Below, piece by piece: positions 20,864-29,636 of a stretch of 64,000 nt of DNA. The stretch lies in NCBI GenBank assembly GCA_023898565.1, contig CP060228.1, positions 560,594 through 624,593 of the forward strand, given 5' to 3'. Source of the DNA: Candidatus Nomurabacteria bacterium (GTDB lineage Bacteria; Patescibacteriota; Minisyncoccia; Phycocordibacterales; UBA918). The notes beneath the pieces were generated by a model. That model was not told the DNA's origin. It did no database searches and was given only the letters and a program-made list of their open reading frames with translations. Position 1 is the first letter of the stretch. Every line of letters starts with the position of its first letter. Made by a program: the position numbers and the translations under genes.

Positions 20864-21613
20864 ATGAAAGCAGAAGTGGAATTTATTTTTGGGAAGCATG
20901 CTGTGCGCGAGGTGCTTAGAGAGCGGCCAGATGTAGTTGCCGAGATTCATGCGGCGGCGGATTTTTCTGATGAGTCAATTTTGGCGTTGGCTGACAAATA
21001 TAAGCTACCGCTTCGGGTGCTCAACCTAAAAAATCCGCCGCGTGGCGTCTCGTCTAAAGCTGCGCATCAGGGGATTGTGGCAGGCATTTTGCCGAGCAAG
21101 CTCACCATTCCATTTAAGACGTTTAAGTCTACCTTGGAAGCAACTCCAGGTACGGCGCTTTTGGTGCTTGGTGAGGTGCAAGATCCACATAATGTTGGCG
21201 CAGTGATTCGCTCCGCTGCTGCGTTTGGTCTAAAGGGTGTGCTGATCCCGCCACACAATCAAGCGCCAATTACTGGCACGGTGGTGAAGGTATCGGTTGG
21301 TATGGCGTTTCGGATTCCGCTCGTGACTATTCCAAATGTAAATACTGCACTGCGTGACCTCAAGCAAAGCGGCTTTTGGACGTATGGTCTCGAAGGCGAT
21401 GGTGCCACTTCTACTACGACTGAAAAATTTACTAAACCAACAGTCTTTGTGCTCGGTAATGAAGGGTCGGGGTTGCGGGAAAAGACGAAAGAGGAGTGCG
21501 ATGAGCTCATTTCAATTCCGATTCATCCCCAGTGTGAATCACTAAATGCTGCCGCAGCAACGGCCATTGTGCTCTCGAGTTGGTCATCCCAACACCCTGA
21601 GGCTTTGTCATAG
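20864..21613 (+). CDS. SPOUT-class RNA 2'-O-methyltransferase (RlmB/TrmH family)
   Basis: SpoU motifs VLGNEGSGL and IPIHPQCESLNAAAATAIVL. Confidence 0.75.
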   Translation: MKAEVEFIFGKHAVREVLRERPDVVAEIHAAADFSDESILALADKYKLPLRVLNLKNPPRGVSSKAAHQGIVAGILPSKLTIPFKTFKSTLEATPGTALLVLGEVQDPHNVGAVIRSAAAFGLKGVLIPPHNQAPITGTVVKVSVGMAFRIPLVTIPNVNTALRDLKQSGFWTYGLEGDGATSTTTEKFTKPTVFVLGNEGSGLREKTKEECDELISIPIHPQCESLNAAAATAIVLSSWSSQHPEALS

Positions 21614-22525: not shown

Positions 22526-22531
22526 TCAGTG

Positions 22532-22585
22532 AAAAACCAGCAGAAAGGCCGGCCCCTTCGGGGCCGGCCTTTCTGCTGGTTTGTT
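22532..22585 (+). terminator. Long intrinsic terminator (21-bp stem)
   Basis: aaccagcagaaaggccggcccc ttcg gggccggcctttctgctggtt. Confidence 0.85.
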
Positions 22586-22603
22586 TCTATCTGGTATACT
22601 TGG

Positions 22604-24754
22604 ATGTACATTATGGTGCGAACTCTTACCCCAACCAAACTCCTCTTCTTAATCTTCGGCATCTCTGCTCTGGTCTACTTTTCTTTTTTTGCCGCCAACG
22701 CTTCTTTTGAGTTTGCTCGTACCACTGATACGTTAGTGTCAAACACTCTCGATGATGGCTTAGTCGGTCACTGGACCTTTGATGGACCGGATGTGGATTG
22801 GTCGGCGACCACTGCTGAGATTAAGGATGTGGTCAGCACTAACGAAGGCAATGCTCTTAATTTGGCTGCTGCCAATGTAACATCAGGCGCTTTGGGACAG
22901 GCGGTCTTGTTTGATAAGGGTATTTCAGGACAGGCGGTCAGTGTTGGTTCTGCTGCTGCCTTGGATGATTTGACACAAAGAACAGTTGTAATGTGGATTA
23001 GACCAACCGGTACGCAGAGTGTTGGAACCTTATTTACTAAAGACTTTTCCTCACCGTTGTTGTCAATGTCGGGCGGTTCGTTGATGGTGCGTGCAAGTTT
23101 TTCAACTATGGATGGTTGGTGGATTTCGGAGGTTTCACCCCAAAACGATGTGTGGCAGCAAGTTGCAGTAACATACGACAGAAGTTCTACTACTAATGAT
23201 CCAGTAATGTACATTAATGGCGAGTCAGTGATGGTATCTGAAGTGCTTGGTCCGTCAGGAAGTTATGTTTCAAATGCTGCAAATACTGCACATATTGGCG
23301 GCTGGCTTGGAACTTCGGTAACCTTTAATGGCGGCATAGACGATGTTCGTGTGTATAACCGCATTCTCTCTCCAGACGAAATCGCCCAGCTCTACGCCAT
23401 GGGCGAGGGTGTTAAAGTCGCCACCACTATCGTATCTGCAGCTAGCACGCTCGATGATGGCCTGGTTGGCCACTGGACCTTCGATGGCGTAGACATAAGC
23501 GGCACCACCGCCTACGATCTCACGAGCAGCTACGCTACGGGCACGCTCACGAGCGGCGCGGCGGTGGCTGGCGGCGCGATTGGGCAGGGTATTGCGCTTG
23601 ATGGCAGTGATGATTTTGTGACGGTCGCCGACACCGCCGCGCTCGACTTCGGCGCGAGCGCCGACTTTACGCTCTCGGGCTGGTTTCGTCGCGAGAGTTA
23701 TACCACCGACGACACGCTCATCGCCAAGCGTAATGGCCTCGCCAACACCGATGATGGCTACATTGCCTACATCGACGATGCTGACGATAAATTCTACTTT
23801 GAAGTGTCAGAAAATAGCGGCACCGATGAATATAGCTTAGTTTCCACTCGCACCTTCACCGACAACGACTGGCATCATTTCATGGTGACATGGGATGATG
23901 ATAACGCCAACAACACCAATCTGTTCATTGACGGCACCTACGAAACTACCGTGAAGACGGGTACAATTGGGAATATTGGTGATCTCTCCACGGCGCTCGC
24001 GTTTCGCATTGGTGCTGAAAGCGATGGCGACAATCCCTTTGCCGGCAAGGTAGACGATGTAAAAGTATACAACCGCGCGCTGTCCACCGCTGAAGTGTAC
24101 CGTACTTACAGCAGCGGCTCGGCGTACCTGCGCACCTGTGGTAGCGTGACCGACGCGGACGGCAATCTCTACAGCACGCTCGTAATAGGCACCCAGTGCT
24201 GGCTGGCGCAAAATATGCGGGTAGGTACGCGCATTAGTGCCTCCACCGCTCAAACCAACAACGCCACTATTGAGAAATGGTGCTACTCAAACTCTGACGC
24301 CAACTGCACCAGTAATAACCCCAACGAACCCGATGGCGGTCTCTACCAATGGAACGAAGCCATGCAGTACAGCTCGACCCAAGGCGCGCAGGGCATCTGC
24401 CCGGCTGGTTGGCACATTCCCACCCACGATGAGTTCACTACTCTAGAAAGAGCCCTCTGCACCTCCAGCACCTGCGCCACCGACTTCCCGTATGACACCA
24501 CCACTGCTGGCTACCGCGGTACTACCGAAGGTACGAAGCTCAAGCCAAATGGCACCGCCGGCCTCAATTTCAACCTCGCCGGCCTCGGTTTCTCGGGGTC
24601 GTTCAGCAATCGCGGCACGTACGGTTACGTCTGGTCGTCTTCGGAGTCTGGTGCCTTTGCTTGGTCCCGCTACGTGCTCTCAGGTACTGCCCAAGTGGTC
24701 CGGTACGCGTACGGCAAGTCTAACGGGTTATCCGTGCGCTGCGTGAAGGACTAA
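22604..24754 (+). CDS. DGR target protein: signal/TM anchor, two LamG-like domains, C-terminal C-type-lectin-fold FISUMP/DUF1566-like domain carrying the variable region
   Basis: Two LDDGLVGHWTFDG...DDV(R/K)VYNRxLS LamG-like modules; C-terminal GNLYSTLVIGTQCW...GGLYQWNEA...CPAGWHIPT...SVRCVKD; TATACT -10 just before ATG. Confidence 0.8.
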   Translation: MYIMVRTLTPTKLLFLIFGISALVYFSFFAANASFEFARTTDTLVSNTLDDGLVGHWTFDGPDVDWSATTAEIKDVVSTNEGNALNLAAANVTSGALGQAVLFDKGISGQAVSVGSAAALDDLTQRTVVMWIRPTGTQSVGTLFTKDFSSPLLSMSGGSLMVRASFSTMDGWWISEVSPQNDVWQQVAVTYDRSSTTNDPVMYINGESVMVSEVLGPSGSYVSNAANTAHIGGWLGTSVTFNGGIDDVRVYNRILSPDEIAQLYAMGEGVKVATTIVSAASTLDDGLVGHWTFDGVDISGTTAYDLTSSYATGTLTSGAAVAGGAIGQGIALDGSDDFVTVADTAALDFGASADFTLSGWFRRESYTTDDTLIAKRNGLANTDDGYIAYIDDADDKFYFEVSENSGTDEYSLVSTRTFTDNDWHHFMVTWDDDNANNTNLFIDGTYETTVKTGTIGNIGDLSTALAFRIGAESDGDNPFAGKVDDVKVYNRALSTAEVYRTYSSGSAYLRTCGSVTDADGNLYSTLVIGTQCWLAQNMRVGTRISASTAQTNNATIEKWCYSNSDANCTSNNPNEPDGGLYQWNEAMQYSSTQGAQGICPAGWHIPTHDEFTTLERALCTSSTCATDFPYDTTTAGYRGTTEGTKLKPNGTAGLNFNLAGLGFSGSFSNRGTYGYVWSSSESGAFAWSRYVLSGTAQVVRYAYGKSNGLSVRCVKD
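24575..24750 (+). repeat. DGR variable region (VR), 176 bp, last codons of the target gene
   Basis: Matches TR 25422-25597 except 17 positions, 16 at TR adenines; 3' 40 nt identical (IMH-like). Confidence 0.9.
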
Positions 24755-24829
24755 TCTCTTGGACTCTTTTCCTCTTTTCACGCAATTTTCTTATGTCACT
24801 AACATACCAACTTTAGTCACCCTCTTTGT

Positions 24830-25180
24830 ATGACCACTACCAATAATTTGCCCGTATACAAGGAAAGCTACGATCTCATTGAAGAGCTGTTTCGATACGT
24901 CAAGGAATTCAATCGGGAATATAAGTACACGCTTGGCGAACGTGTCAAAACTGAAATGATTGCGCTTGTAATAGATATCTATCGTGCAAATAGTTCAATC
25001 GAAAAGCGTGGTGAGCATATCAAGTCGGCTCGGGAGCGGGTGGAAGTGATTCGCTTGCTCTTGCGTCTGCTCCGCGATCTGCGACAGCTTCCGCTCGAGA
25101 AGTTTGTGTCACTCAATGTGAAGATTGAATCAGTGAGTCGGCAACTCACCGGCTGGCTCAAAAAGAGTCAGGCCAAGTAG
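24830..25180 (+). CDS. avd: Accessory variability determinant (Avd; four-helix-bundle / 23S rRNA IVS-protein family)
   Basis: 116 aa, basic helical protein with IVS-protein family pattern. Confidence 0.75.
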   Translation: MTTTNNLPVYKESYDLIEELFRYVKEFNREYKYTLGERVKTEMIALVIDIYRANSSIEKRGEHIKSARERVEVIRLLLRLLRDLRQLPLEKFVSLNVKIESVSRQLTGWLKKSQAK

Positions 25181-25421
25181 TATTGAAGGCCTACGCCCGA
25201 GGACTGTCCTCGGGCACTGGTAGCTGGTAGGGTATACTAGGTGAGCCAGAGCTGAGTGCTGTTACGACACACTCAGGAGTGCATGATGAATCCAGTCATC
25301 CTCCTTGGCAACACTCACGAAGTGGGTGTCGCCAAGGGTTGCGGAGTGTCCCTCCCTTGCTGCTGGCGGCAATCATAAGTCCGTCAGTGGTGAAAGATAA
25401 GTGATGGCTTCCTAACGATAG

Positions 25422-25597
25422 CTCGCCGGCAACGGTTTCTCGGGGTCGTTCAACAATCGCGGCACGAACGGTAACGTCTGGTCGTCTTCGGAGTCTGGTG
25501 CCAGTGCTTGGAACCGCAACGTGAACTCAGGTACTGCCCAAGTGAACCGGAACGCGAACGACAAGTCTAACGGGTTATCCGTGCGCTGCGTGAAGGA
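25422..25597 (+). repeat. DGR template repeat (TR)
   Basis: In-frame AAC codons at all variable sites; followed by an 11-bp perfect hairpin (25610-25637). Confidence 0.9.
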
Positions 25598-25687
25598 TTC
25601 ATCGGTAATACAAAGCAAGCATAGCGCTTGCTTTGTGTGTTTAGTAAGGTAATTTGAAATGATTTTCATTTCTGCTACACTGAAAAT

Positions 25688-25906
25688 ATGAAAAAGCAAG
25701 TTCACATTATGCTTGATATCGAACGCCTTCCAGAGGGGTGTTATCTAGCGACGAGCAAAGATGTGCAAGGGCTTGTTGTGCAAGCAAAAACTTTTGAAAA
25801 GACCATAGAGATTGCAGAAGATGTTGCTCGACAACTTCTCTTGGCGCAGAAAGGAAAACATACATCACCTGAGCGTATCTTGTATCCGATGACTATTACT
25901 GCCTAG
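25688..25906 (+). CDS. hicB: HicB-family antitoxin
   Basis: UPF0150/HicB fold pattern (EGCYLATSKDVQGLVVQAKTFEKTIEIAEDV). Confidence 0.65.
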   Translation: MKKQVHIMLDIERLPEGCYLATSKDVQGLVVQAKTFEKTIEIAEDVARQLLLAQKGKHTSPERILYPMTITA

Positions 25907-25909
25907 TGT

Positions 25910-26134
25910 ATGGGGCGGCTTTCTGGTATTACGTATCGTGCACTTTCAAAAAAGTTGCGTTCTTTTGGTTTTGTATTTTGGCGGAGCGCTAAGGGAAGTC
26001 ATGAGATTTGGTACAACGAAGCACAGGATATTTTTACTACTATCCCTCGGCATACTGGCGATATGGCGGAGGGTACCGTGCGGGCAATATTGAAACAGGC
26101 TAGTATTGAAGTTGATGACTTTTTAAAATTGTAA
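25910..26134 (+). CDS. hicA: HicA-family mRNA interferase toxin
   Basis: KGSHEIW ... IPRH ... GTVRAILKQA motifs of HicA/YcfA. Confidence 0.7.
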   Translation: MGRLSGITYRALSKKLRSFGFVFWRSAKGSHEIWYNEAQDIFTTIPRHTGDMAEGTVRAILKQASIEVDDFLKL

Positions 26135-26139
26135 AAACA

Positions 26140-27324
26140 TTGAGTCGTATATTAAGTAGCTCATCTCCCTTACTTACTGATCTTTTTAAGGCCTACGAAG
26201 ACGCGCGGCGACATAAGCGAAAAACAAAAGGTACGCTGGAGTTTTCACTCAATTACGAAGAGCGACTGTTTGAACTTTACGAAGACCTTGTGTGTCGGCG
26301 TTACAAAATTGCCCCTGCAACCTGCTTTATTGTGACCAAGCCAGTTCGGCGCGAAATATTTGCGGGTGATTTCCGCGACCGTATCGTACATCACCTCATT
26401 TTTAATTATCTCAACCCGCTCTGTGAACGACTGTTTACCAACGACAGCTATGCGTGTCGAAAGGGGAAGGGGACGAGTTATGGTATTAAGCGCGCCGACC
26501 ACTTTATTCGCTCTGTTTCTCACAATTACACGCGCGACTGCTACGTACTACAGCTCGATATAAGTGGGTATTTTATGTCAATCAACCGCACAATCTTGTA
26601 CGAGAAAGTGACGCGCATCATCGAACGATATCGTGATGAAATAACGTTTGATACAGAGCTAGTGTTGTGGCTTTTGGAGAAAATAATCTTTCACGACCAC
26701 ATCAAGGCGTGTATCCAGTGTGGGGACACGAGTAATTGGACCGAGTTGCCATCATCGAAAAGTCTATTCCACGCGGCACCTGGCTGCGGGTTACCGATCG
26801 GTAACCTCACTTCACAGTTATTTGGAAACGTGTATCTCAATGACTTTGATCATTTTGCGATGCGACTGGTGCCAGGGGTGCGCTGTGGTCGGTATGTCGA
26901 TGATATGATTTTTGTACATCAAGATAAAGAAGTGCTGAGGCAAATAATTCTCAAAGTGCAATATTTTCTTTCTGAAAAATTAGCGCTTACGCTGCACCCG
27001 CGCAAGATTAAACTGACTCACTATGAGCAGGGAATTGATTTTTTAGGAGCGCGGATGTTTCGTGGCCGGATGTATCCACGTCGGCCGATCGTGACAAACG
27101 TGGAGCGGACAATCATGCAGTGGAATGAAGTGTTGCAAGTGAATGATGTGCTAACCGAAGCCGAGGTGCAGAAATTGCTGGCATCTATAAATGCTTCGCT
27201 AGGTCACCTAGCGTTTTTTCAGACGAGACGACTGCGTCAGTGTTTGTTGGCGAGATGTATGCCTGCTTTCTTGCGGCATGTTCAGTGTGATAAATCATTT
27301 CGAACGCTTGCGAGGATGTGGTGA
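26140..27324 (+). CDS. DGR reverse transcriptase
   Basis: RT motifs with DGR-specific SQ (NLTSQLFGNVYLN) and catalytic YVDD (GRYVDDMIFVH). Confidence 0.9.
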   Translation: MSRILSSSSPLLTDLFKAYEDARRHKRKTKGTLEFSLNYEERLFELYEDLVCRRYKIAPATCFIVTKPVRREIFAGDFRDRIVHHLIFNYLNPLCERLFTNDSYACRKGKGTSYGIKRADHFIRSVSHNYTRDCYVLQLDISGYFMSINRTILYEKVTRIIERYRDEITFDTELVLWLLEKIIFHDHIKACIQCGDTSNWTELPSSKSLFHAAPGCGLPIGNLTSQLFGNVYLNDFDHFAMRLVPGVRCGRYVDDMIFVHQDKEVLRQIILKVQYFLSEKLALTLHPRKIKLTHYEQGIDFLGARMFRGRMYPRRPIVTNVERTIMQWNEVLQVNDVLTEAEVQKLLASINASLGHLAFFQTRRLRQCLLARCMPAFLRHVQCDKSFRTLARMW

Positions 27325-27365: not shown

Positions 27366-27413
27366 ACAGCACATAAAAATCAGTAGATAGTGAGGTTGTA
27401 TACTGAAGTCATT

Positions 27414-28673: not shown

Positions 28674-28694
28674 GATGCTATACTCTATGCATCT

Positions 28695-29278: not shown

Positions 29279-29636
29279 GCACGATGGTCGCCTCGTTTGA
29301 ATGAACGGGGAGGAAAGTCCGGACACGCCCACATCTTTGATGTGGAGCAGGGTAGCGGGTAATACCCGTCGCGGCGGATGGCGGGCCACATTTTGAAAGC
29401 TTTCAAAATGTGGCCCGCCATCCGACCGAGAGGTGCGAGCAGAGACGCCCGAATCGAAAGTGCAGGGGTTCCTTAGGGAATAGTCGCTTGGGAAACCAAG
29501 CGAGTGAAACGGCTAAATCCTTACTTGCGTGCAAGGCCGTGCCTGTTTACAGGAGAGCCGCATGAGCTTTGTAGTAATACAGAGCCTAGGTATATGACCA
29601 TCCGAGCATTTGTTCGACAGAATCCGGCTTACGTGC
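29279..29636 (+). ncRNA. rnpB: RNase P RNA (bacterial type A-like)
   Basis: P4 5' strand GGGAGGAAAGTCCGGAC, P4 3' strand ACAGAATCCGGCTTA, P2 GATGGTC/GACCATC, P8 CGGGTAATACCCG; terminator follows. Confidence 0.8.

Follow-up and report, generated by a model that had tools for sequence, protein, structure and literature searches.

The DNA described here, a stretch of 64,000 nucleotides from contig CP060228.1 (assembly GCA_023898565.1, positions 560,594 to 624,593 of the forward strand; the window in what follows), carries a diversity-generating retroelement (DGR) whose template repeat (TR) and reverse transcriptase (RT) gene are separated by a two-gene toxin-antitoxin (TA) module of the HicB-HicA type (hicBA). 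Positions are those of the window, and the DGR and hicBA features named below lie on its + strand. The explanation that we consider probable is that hicBA is an autonomous passenger, inserted into the TR-RT spacer of a DGR that still works.

That the surrounding DGR is real, as had been proposed from the letters of the sequence, is borne out by its avd, RT and target genes and by the adenine-specific differences between TR and the variable repeat (VR). The target gene (22529-24754) codes for 741 residues when read from GTG 22529, other assemblies starting it at ATG 22613, and its product combines two LamG domains (Laminin_G_3, E=4.6e-41) with a C-terminal Fib_succ_major domain (E=2.9e-28), which holds the VR. 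VR (24575-24756), located at the 3' end of the target gene, and TR (25422-25603) form a 182-nt direct repeat of 90% identity. Their 19 mismatches comprise 16 TR adenines, one G adjoining an A and two positions at the extreme 3' end, the latter being read as a difference of the IMH/IMH* type (IMH, initiation of mutagenic homing). The change at the G (VR 24657 T versus TR 25504 G) neighbours a mutated A, and other VR alleles keep the G. No second VR was identified within the window. Between VR and TR, avd (24830-25180) codes for a four-helix bundle of 116 residues, which matches the Pfam model bAvd (E=1.6e-16) and, under the model cutoff, the NCBIfam model DivGenRetAVD (E=1.2e-14). The RT gene (26140-27324; 394 residues from a TTG start; RVT_1, E=2.3e-17) codes for a protein that is 39-68% identical to the RTs of 58 related genome loci, of which 50 also hold an Avd homologue. 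Assignment of this RT to defence systems, retrons or group II introns was rejected, as NCBIfam and PADLOC returned generic or sub-threshold matches only; the presence of both the TR/VR pair and Avd settles the DGR identity.

TR is flanked by two putative RNA elements. Between avd and TR, a motif resembling RT-7, one of the RT-associated motifs of Weinberg et al. 2017 (PMC5737381), was identified at 25245-25415 (Rfam RF03028, E=7e-10), its 48.6 bits being under the Rfam gathering score of 116.8 bits. The same motif was found between avd and TR in all seven related DGR loci tested (33-56 bits; L001 2942-3115, L002 1149-1309, L003 2015-2165, L008 5607-5758, L016 935-1093, L021 5436-5573 and L029 2940-3101), which suggests that in this clade the DGR RNA has a divergent RT-7 subfamily as its 5' portion. 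On the other side, TR is followed by a hairpin (25610-25636) with a perfect 11-bp stem (ACAAAGCAAGC/GCTTGCTTTGT) and a 5-nt loop. Strong hairpins located 11-17 nt past the conserved '...RCVKD' codons of TR were identified in about 14 related DGRs (L001, L002, L003, L008, L012, L016, L018, L021, L025, L029, L033, L044, L053 and L054), the position being conserved and the sequence not; other relatives do without the hairpin, their TR abutting RT at 11-22 nt. Such a structure could mark where the DGR RNA ends on its 3' side, take part in priming or work by attenuation. Its function as an intrinsic terminator was rejected, as a U-tract, which follows the hairpin in some loci only, is found 3' of it neither in the window nor in L001, and since the RT start of L001 lies only 14 nt beyond the hairpin, read-through past it must occur.

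The two genes which separate TR from RT are hicB (25688-25906, ATG start, 72 residues), coding for a short antitoxin with a fold of the HicB N-terminal type, and hicA (25910-26134, ATG start, 74 residues), coding for a HicA-family RNase toxin with a fold resembling a double-stranded RNA-binding domain (dsRBD). The sequence-only reading had described them as a HicB/HicA pair, co-oriented and tightly spaced between TR and RT; Pfam PF07927, the folds and the homologues agree with this, the coordinates are exact, as are the gaps of 3 nt between hicB and hicA (25907-25909) and 5 nt between hicA and RT (26135-26139), and the quoted HicA motifs (AKGSHEIW...TTIPRH) are present. Neither gene was found a second time within the window.

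By Pfam score, predicted fold and conserved histidine, HicA may be called a secure member of its family. Its match to PF07927 reaches 54.2 bits (cutoff 27; E=1.6e-14) and covers profile positions 2-57 of 58, and the same model is carried by 91 of 91 Pfam-annotated homologues. A family profile derived from 40 homologues matches the PDB entries 1WHZ (E=1.2e-11), 9SVK, 6G26_E and 4C26. The AlphaFold2 model (pLDDT 91.7) displays an alpha-beta-beta-beta-alpha arrangement (helix 9-18, strands 21-27, 31-36 and 41-46, helix 54-63), for which the first six Foldseek ranks are all HicA structures (1WHZ, 5YRZ_B, 6G26_E, 6G26_F, 4P78_C and 4C26), the superposition with 1WHZ giving TM 0.81/0.85 and an rmsd of 1.6 Å. 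HicA-family toxins are RNases whose catalytic residue is the histidine of a Gly-x-His motif. Within the motif KGSHEIW of the window protein G29, H31 and E32 are invariant among 40 homologues, and H31 aligns with the histidine of 1WHZ (AKGGHRLY) and with that of 9SVK. The name given by NCBI is 'type II toxin-antitoxin system HicA family toxin [Candidatus Kaiserbacteria bacterium]'.

The assignment of HicB rests on homologues, fold and gene context and is the weak point of the identification. Profile searches, by which the sequence-only reading had expected both proteins to be placed, confirmed HicA and left HicB under the threshold; it scores 19.7 bits on DUF1902 (cutoff 22; E=9.8e-4) and matched neither a HicB-named Pfam model nor any NCBIfam model; DUF1902 is matched by 39 of 44 close HicB homologues at E<=0.01 (best 1.2e-5). 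A PDB search with the single sequence gave no match, and the family profile found 1WV8 (TTHA1013) as its best PDB match with E=0.019. In the AlphaFold2 model (pLDDT 87.3) three strands (9-13, 19-23, 30-33) and a helix (36-57) form a beta-beta-beta-alpha fold, whose top Foldseek matches are HicB3 6U0I_B (prob 1.00, TMq 0.62), 6G1C (HicB-N of B. pseudomallei), 6HPB_B (HicB of E. coli), 2YZT and 1WV8, with E-values that are weak (0.04-0.2), as is expected for a query of 72 residues. After the helix the model holds only an unstructured tail of 15 residues and no C-terminal ribbon-helix-helix (RHH) or helix-turn-helix (HTH) DNA-binding domain. This predicted architecture matches a short HicB of the TTHA1013/DUF1902 type, membership in the wider group not being excluded thereby. 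All invariant positions of the family are retained in the window protein. Among 85 homologous hicBA loci (80 metagenome loci, with HicA 59-71% identical, plus the group of L069, the closest free-standing copy), 81 hold both hicB and hicA. NCBI names the identical HicB 'DUF1902 domain-containing' and some of the homologues 'HicB family antitoxin'; public records already annotate the locus, their labels being HicA toxin, DUF1902 protein and four-helix-bundle protein.

Comparison with related DGRs identified the position of hicBA as exceptional. The survey covered 138 related loci, i.e., 58 genome loci (437 kb; mostly Patescibacteria, some Bacteroidota) and 80 viral-contig loci (611 kb; RT 35-44% identical), the latter being found with an RT alignment, as the window RT alone gave none. 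Neither tblastn nor family HMMs at E<=1 detected hicA or hicB in the 58 genome loci, and none of the 80 viral loci holds hicBA inside its cassette; the arrangement, suspected earlier to be atypical, was thus found in 0 of 138 other related DGR loci. On two related phage contigs, L213 (4100-4282) and L205 (6905-7135), a HicA-like open reading frame (ORF) of 60 residues lies about 1.8 kb downstream of a DGR RT that is 38% identical to that of the window; other genes lie between, and this is co-occurrence, not embedding.

The distance between avd and RT amounts to 959 nt in the window, as compared to 343-460 nt in most of the 58 genome loci and 23-578 nt in those viral loci that have avd upstream of RT. 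Likewise, 548 nt separate the end of TR from the start of RT, where L001 has 47 nt and further relatives have 11-243 nt. The few longer avd-to-RT gaps are free of inserted genes and consist of non-coding DNA or of additional TR/VR-like repeats. One of them, the 1020-nt gap of a Dysgonomonadaceae DGR (L037, 1314-2065), contains an A-rich TR-like copy and two further repeats, which look diversified and reside in short ORFs (74 and 91 residues) ending in ...SVRCVAELNANVL; they may represent miniature genes, each with a VR, placed between TR and RT. The closest relative is L001 from Ca. Nomurabacteria, with an RT of 68% identity; there, TR is followed by the hairpin, 14 nt and the RT ATG. The window repeats this layout up to the hairpin, after which about 0.5 kb with hicBA and then RT follow. 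Based on the TR-RT and avd-RT spacing, the inserted cassette was placed at approximately 25637-26139, with the left junction within 25637-25653 and the right junction at or near the RT start; the RT-7-like motif, TR and the post-TR hairpin all lie upstream of the insertion and are untouched. By this comparison, hicBA is taken to be a lineage-specific insertion in one Candidatus Kaiserbacteria species.

The family of the pair is populous, and homologues with 74-86% HicB identity occupy unrelated neighbourhoods without RT or Avd, among them those of a LamG protein and a DEAD helicase, of FtsK, PaaX and ribosomal L10-L12, of PG_binding, TPR and Wzy_C, and of SecG and GroES-GroEL. At the 85 hicBA loci, RT, Avd and the CLec domain are absent within the sequence available, which extends at least 1.2 kb downstream in 39 of them. 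When compared with L069, nucleotide similarity is limited to 25687-26124, hence to the hicBA coding region. These observations identify hicBA as an autonomous, mobile TA cassette. That hicBA might be linked to LamG surface proteins was considered and rejected: the neighbour of L069, which possesses two LamG domains, is 28% identical to the target and has no CLec/VR end, and as the other contexts differ too, its adjacency is regarded as coincidental. At three loci (L160 4001-4219, L161 518-736, L162 1814-2032) hicB homologues of 75-82% identity have no called hicA directly downstream and look like orphan antitoxins left by toxin loss; in L160 a second, different HicA pair is located just upstream of hicB.

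Evidence for continued activity of the DGR comes from strains carrying the same insertion. Identical HicB was found on at least 24 contigs from several projects, and nine assemblies overlapping the locus were compared with the window. Seven of these show no difference from the window across 24757-27324, a segment comprising avd, the RT-7-like motif, TR, hicBA and RT, and hicBA is without substitutions among the strains compared. The nine assemblies hold eight distinct VR alleles, whose variable columns coincide with TR adenines in 28 of 30 cases (39 adenines in the 182 nt of TR; Fisher p=9e-22) and with codon positions 1 and 2 in likewise 28 of 30. Because VR varies at TR adenines and the avd-to-RT segment is identical, mutagenic retrohoming has operated with hicBA in place, and by this indirect population evidence the DGR is judged to remain active after the insertion. 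The sequence-only reading had also considered an unrelated insertion that disrupts RT expression. The insertion is indeed an unrelated one, but RT function is not abolished, as VR keeps diversifying.

The strains compared represent distinct lineages, all with hicBA, because they differ elsewhere, e.g., in a gene for a SpoU-type methylase (20902-21598). There, L059 and L060 display 40-50 clustered substitutions relative to the window, being otherwise near-identical to it over 10 kb; the substitutions are mostly spaced by multiples of three, apparently occupying third codon positions, and recombination from a diverged lineage is suggested as their source. Two assemblies deviate from this pattern within the repeats. 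In the VR allele of L063 a TR thymine (column 50) is changed in addition, and TR, which is identical in eight of the nine assemblies, carries four differences in L067, a metagenome contig (equivalent to 25512, 25518, 25525 and 25548), three of them at adenines; the L067 TR is most likely a VR/TR chimera of the assembly, or else a variant TR.

Expression of RT seems to run through the inserted cassette. A promoter-like site precedes hicB (25654-25681), consisting of TTGAAA, a 16-nt spacer and a TG-extended TACACT with 6 nt to the hicB ATG; the promoter scan counted 9 of 12 hexamer matches plus the TG. The same geometry (extended -10, 6 nt, ATG) is found before free-standing L069, L076, L085, L094, L157, L160, L162 and L164, and it predicts a leaderless mRNA. 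The -35 and -10 elements enclose an operator-like inverted repeat, GAAATGA-TTT-TCATTTC (25656-25662 / 25666-25672), which is not conserved before homologous hicBA cassettes, and HicB is without a DNA-binding domain. In 50 of 53 relatives RT starts with an ATG that precedes the conserved LLxDLFxAY by a few codons. The window RT has no ATG upstream of its LLxDLF motif, the only start being TTG 26140, 5 nt past the hicA stop, and no Shine-Dalgarno-like sequence was seen upstream of it. Apart from that of hicB, the promoter scan identified no + strand promoter upstream of RT, nor was a terminator-like site found between the hicA coding sequence and RT, the only + strand hit of this kind within the cassette being a weak site at the hicB/hicA junction. 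A dedicated RT promoter in the hicA 3' end was rejected: a TAAAAT at 26124-26129 has no properly spaced -35, and the scanner was silent. Because the TTG located 5 nt after the hicA stop is the only start, RT probably shares a transcript with hicBA, and its translation is probably coupled to that of hicA. A single TR-hicBA-RT transcript, as had been proposed for the locus, is plausible from the anatomy; it is not the sole option, because the cassette brings its own promoter-like site.

Short-leader architecture is found at further genes of the window. A TATACT or TACACT box lies 6-12 nt before the ATG of the target gene (22613), MgtE (27414), DUF192 (28695) and hicB (25688), none of them with a Shine-Dalgarno sequence; the respective box intervals are 22592-22612, 27394-27413, 28675-28694 and 25673-25687. 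This suggests that leaderless mRNAs, or such with a very short leader, are widespread in this genome.

Combining these data, the following course of events is proposed. A type II hicBA cassette, bringing the HicA RNase toxin, the short HicB antitoxin and a promoter of its own, would have entered the short spacer between TR and RT of an Avd-type DGR. This would have happened in the ancestor of a single Candidatus Kaiserbacteria species, in which the cassette then became fixed. By landing just 3' of the cis-acting DGR RNA parts it would have left these intact, allowing mutagenic retrohoming to continue, and as a side effect RT would have ended up last in the hicBA unit. Most likely, two routes lead to RT mRNA, namely the avd-TR transcript coming from upstream and the hicB promoter, and translation occurs by re-initiation after hicA. 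As in other HicAB modules, HicB presumably neutralises the HicA mRNA interferase, whose release would cause a growth arrest of the post-segregational, stress-related or phage-related kind; if the TA pair stabilises the DGR locus at all, it would do so incidentally.

Several points weigh against this explanation. No flanking direct or inverted repeats beyond chance 8-12-mers, no target-site duplication and no recombinase were found at the cassette, and transposon-like borders were rejected for the former reason. The third-position GC content (GC3) of hicBA (0.37-0.38) is lower than that of avd, RT and target (0.49-0.59); the difference is mild and within the range of the genome, and as SurA is equally low (GC3 0.37), composition was rejected as proof of a foreign origin and lends weak support to it. 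HicB stays just under the DUF1902 cutoff, and with its DNA-binding domain missing, autoregulation of the kind usual for TA operons is not to be taken for granted. The survey represents one RT clade (138 loci) and not all DGRs. Finally, the co-transcription and coupling of RT, the toxicity of HicA and its neutralisation by HicB are parts of the proposal that we infer.

The next most probable alternative to a passenger insertion is a functional co-option, in which hicBA joined the regulation of the DGR after its insertion. It would set the RT dosage via the TA promoter and translational coupling, e.g., for a stress-responsive hypermutation, HicA might trim or degrade TR-containing RNA, and addiction may prevent loss of the TR-RT half. 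An RT that has lost any ATG start and begins with a TTG 5 nt past the adjoining hicA stop would fit such a role, as would the lack of a terminator-like site between the hicA coding sequence and RT, the fixation of the arrangement in all nine assemblies while the DGR stays active, and the RNase nature of HicA-family toxins, which is known for the family and in line with the structural matches. Against this stands the restriction to one species, the arrangement being absent from 138 related DGRs, together with the fact that close hicBA homologues are never found with DGR genes; moreover, regulated transcription is not evident, since HicB has no DNA-binding domain, and the promoter inverted repeat is not conserved in homologues. 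Co-option is hence considered unlikely, and the more specific proposal, that the TA operon governs how much RT is supplied, and through it the rate of hypermutation, with the module also addicting the cell to the TR-RT half, decidedly so. The functional integration envisaged by the sequence-only reading is not supported, given the occurrence in one species only and the homologues in non-DGR contexts, the 85 hicBA loci being without DGR genes, and nothing was found in support of a mechanistic HicA-DGR link.

A disarmed module, i.e., one with an inactive toxin whose ORFs are kept mainly since RT expression runs through them, would be in keeping with the TA decay seen in L160-L162, where hicB has no called adjoining hicA, and with an RT translation that appears to depend on hicA termination. 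Both ORFs are, however, of full length and retain the family-invariant residues (G29, H31 and E32 of HicA and the respective HicB positions), their folds are predicted with confidence (pLDDT 87 and 92) and no substitutions occur among strains, which renders this alternative quite improbable. Still further from the data, and highly improbable, is the idea that the pair is no TA system at all and that its dsRBD-like HicA and RNase-H-like HicB are RNA-binding DGR accessories similar to Avd or HRDC proteins. Judged by the fold matches both folds bind nucleic acid, and the genes reside where accessory genes sit within the cassette, but relatives with the same avd-TR-RT core and with VR/TR pairs work without hicBA, the nearest homologues stand alone outside DGRs as two-gene cassettes, each with its own promoter, and the catalytic histidine is conserved as it is in toxins. 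An accessory gene of the Avd, HRDC, MSL or CH1 kind would be expected to recur, and no recurrent association was observed, neither at the DGR loci (0 of 138) nor at the hicBA loci (0 of 85). The insertion of an autonomous passenger into a DGR that remained active is therefore preferred.

One further observation in the window concerns the intergenic region of the DUF192 and TPR genes (29373-29425), which holds a perfect palindrome of about 25 bp (GGCGGATGGCGGGCCACATTTTGAAAGCTTTCAAAATGTGGCCCGCCATCCG); a region of 121 nt around it folds at -65.6 kcal/mol, with z=-7.6 versus shuffles.

With an autonomous passenger inserted between TR and RT, the locus represents a natural experiment, in which an active DGR tolerates a foreign 0.5-kb cassette at this position. 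For this Patescibacteria DGR clade it is implied that the cis elements 3' of TR fit into about 35-50 nt, that is the hairpin, and that TR RNA and RT need not adjoin directly. The locus further illustrates how operons in the streamlined genomes of the candidate phyla radiation (CPR) are invaded by a mobile hicBA cassette whose promoter predicts a leaderless mRNA, and it is a candidate case of such a selfish cassette capturing the expression of a downstream gene, here that of a hypermutation enzyme. If RT truly depended on the TA operon, a selfish module would control a hypermutation system, and if TA-governed RT supply came along with addiction, the locus would be a natural TA-stabilised and TA-regulated diversity generator. 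In the library searched, no paper on a TA module inside a DGR cassette was found, papers with both HicA and DGRs treating them separately. The specific arrangement thus appears to be undescribed, as an insertion in one species and not as a new class, neither the TA pair nor the DGR being new in kind.

Among characterised TA proteins, those of T. thermophilus, i.e., HicA TTHA1913 (1WHZ) and the HicB-like TTHA1013 (1WV8), the latter being the founder of DUF1902, provide the best sequence and structure matches for comparison with the window pair. Both systems comprise two genes for proteins of about 70 residues, with the same dsRBD-like HicA carrying Gly-x-His and the same beta-beta-beta-alpha, partially RNase-H-like HicB. 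Unlike the T. thermophilus-type pair, the window hicBA, known here from sequence and models, resides inside a retroelement operon. Its order is hicB followed by hicA, whereas in E. coli hicAB the toxin comes first, and its HicB of 72 residues is considerably shorter than those of E. coli, Y. pestis and B. pseudomallei, which comprise 132-141 residues with a C-terminal RHH or HTH domain. TA cassettes in chromosomal superintegrons have been proposed to stabilise the array. The likeness to these consists in an addiction-type module within a dispensable, diversity-generating element, deletion of which would remove the antitoxin gene; the difference is that neither a recombination site nor an integrase is present here, and a stabilising effect is conjecture.

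As to the host element, the window possesses a conserved RT-7-like RNA 5' of TR, while Bordetella phage BPP-1 has its functionally defined spacer 3' of TR. With Avd-type DGRs such as that of BPP-1 ('Architecture B', PMC5758913) it shares the order target-avd-TR-RT on one strand, the adenine-specific TR/VR differences and the location of VR in the C-terminal domain of the target; it deviates from the canonical layout in that a foreign two-gene cassette of 0.5 kb parts TR from RT. Unrelated genes 'sandwiched' between DGR genes were reported by Wu et al. 2018 (PMC5758913), according to whose main text they are mostly hypothetical, include ribosomal protein genes in five CPR DGRs and were judged uninformative, the word 'toxin' being absent from that main text. 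As compared to the sandwiched genes described there, the interloper in the window is identified, its autonomy is shown, and activity of the DGR after its insertion is documented by the VR alleles.

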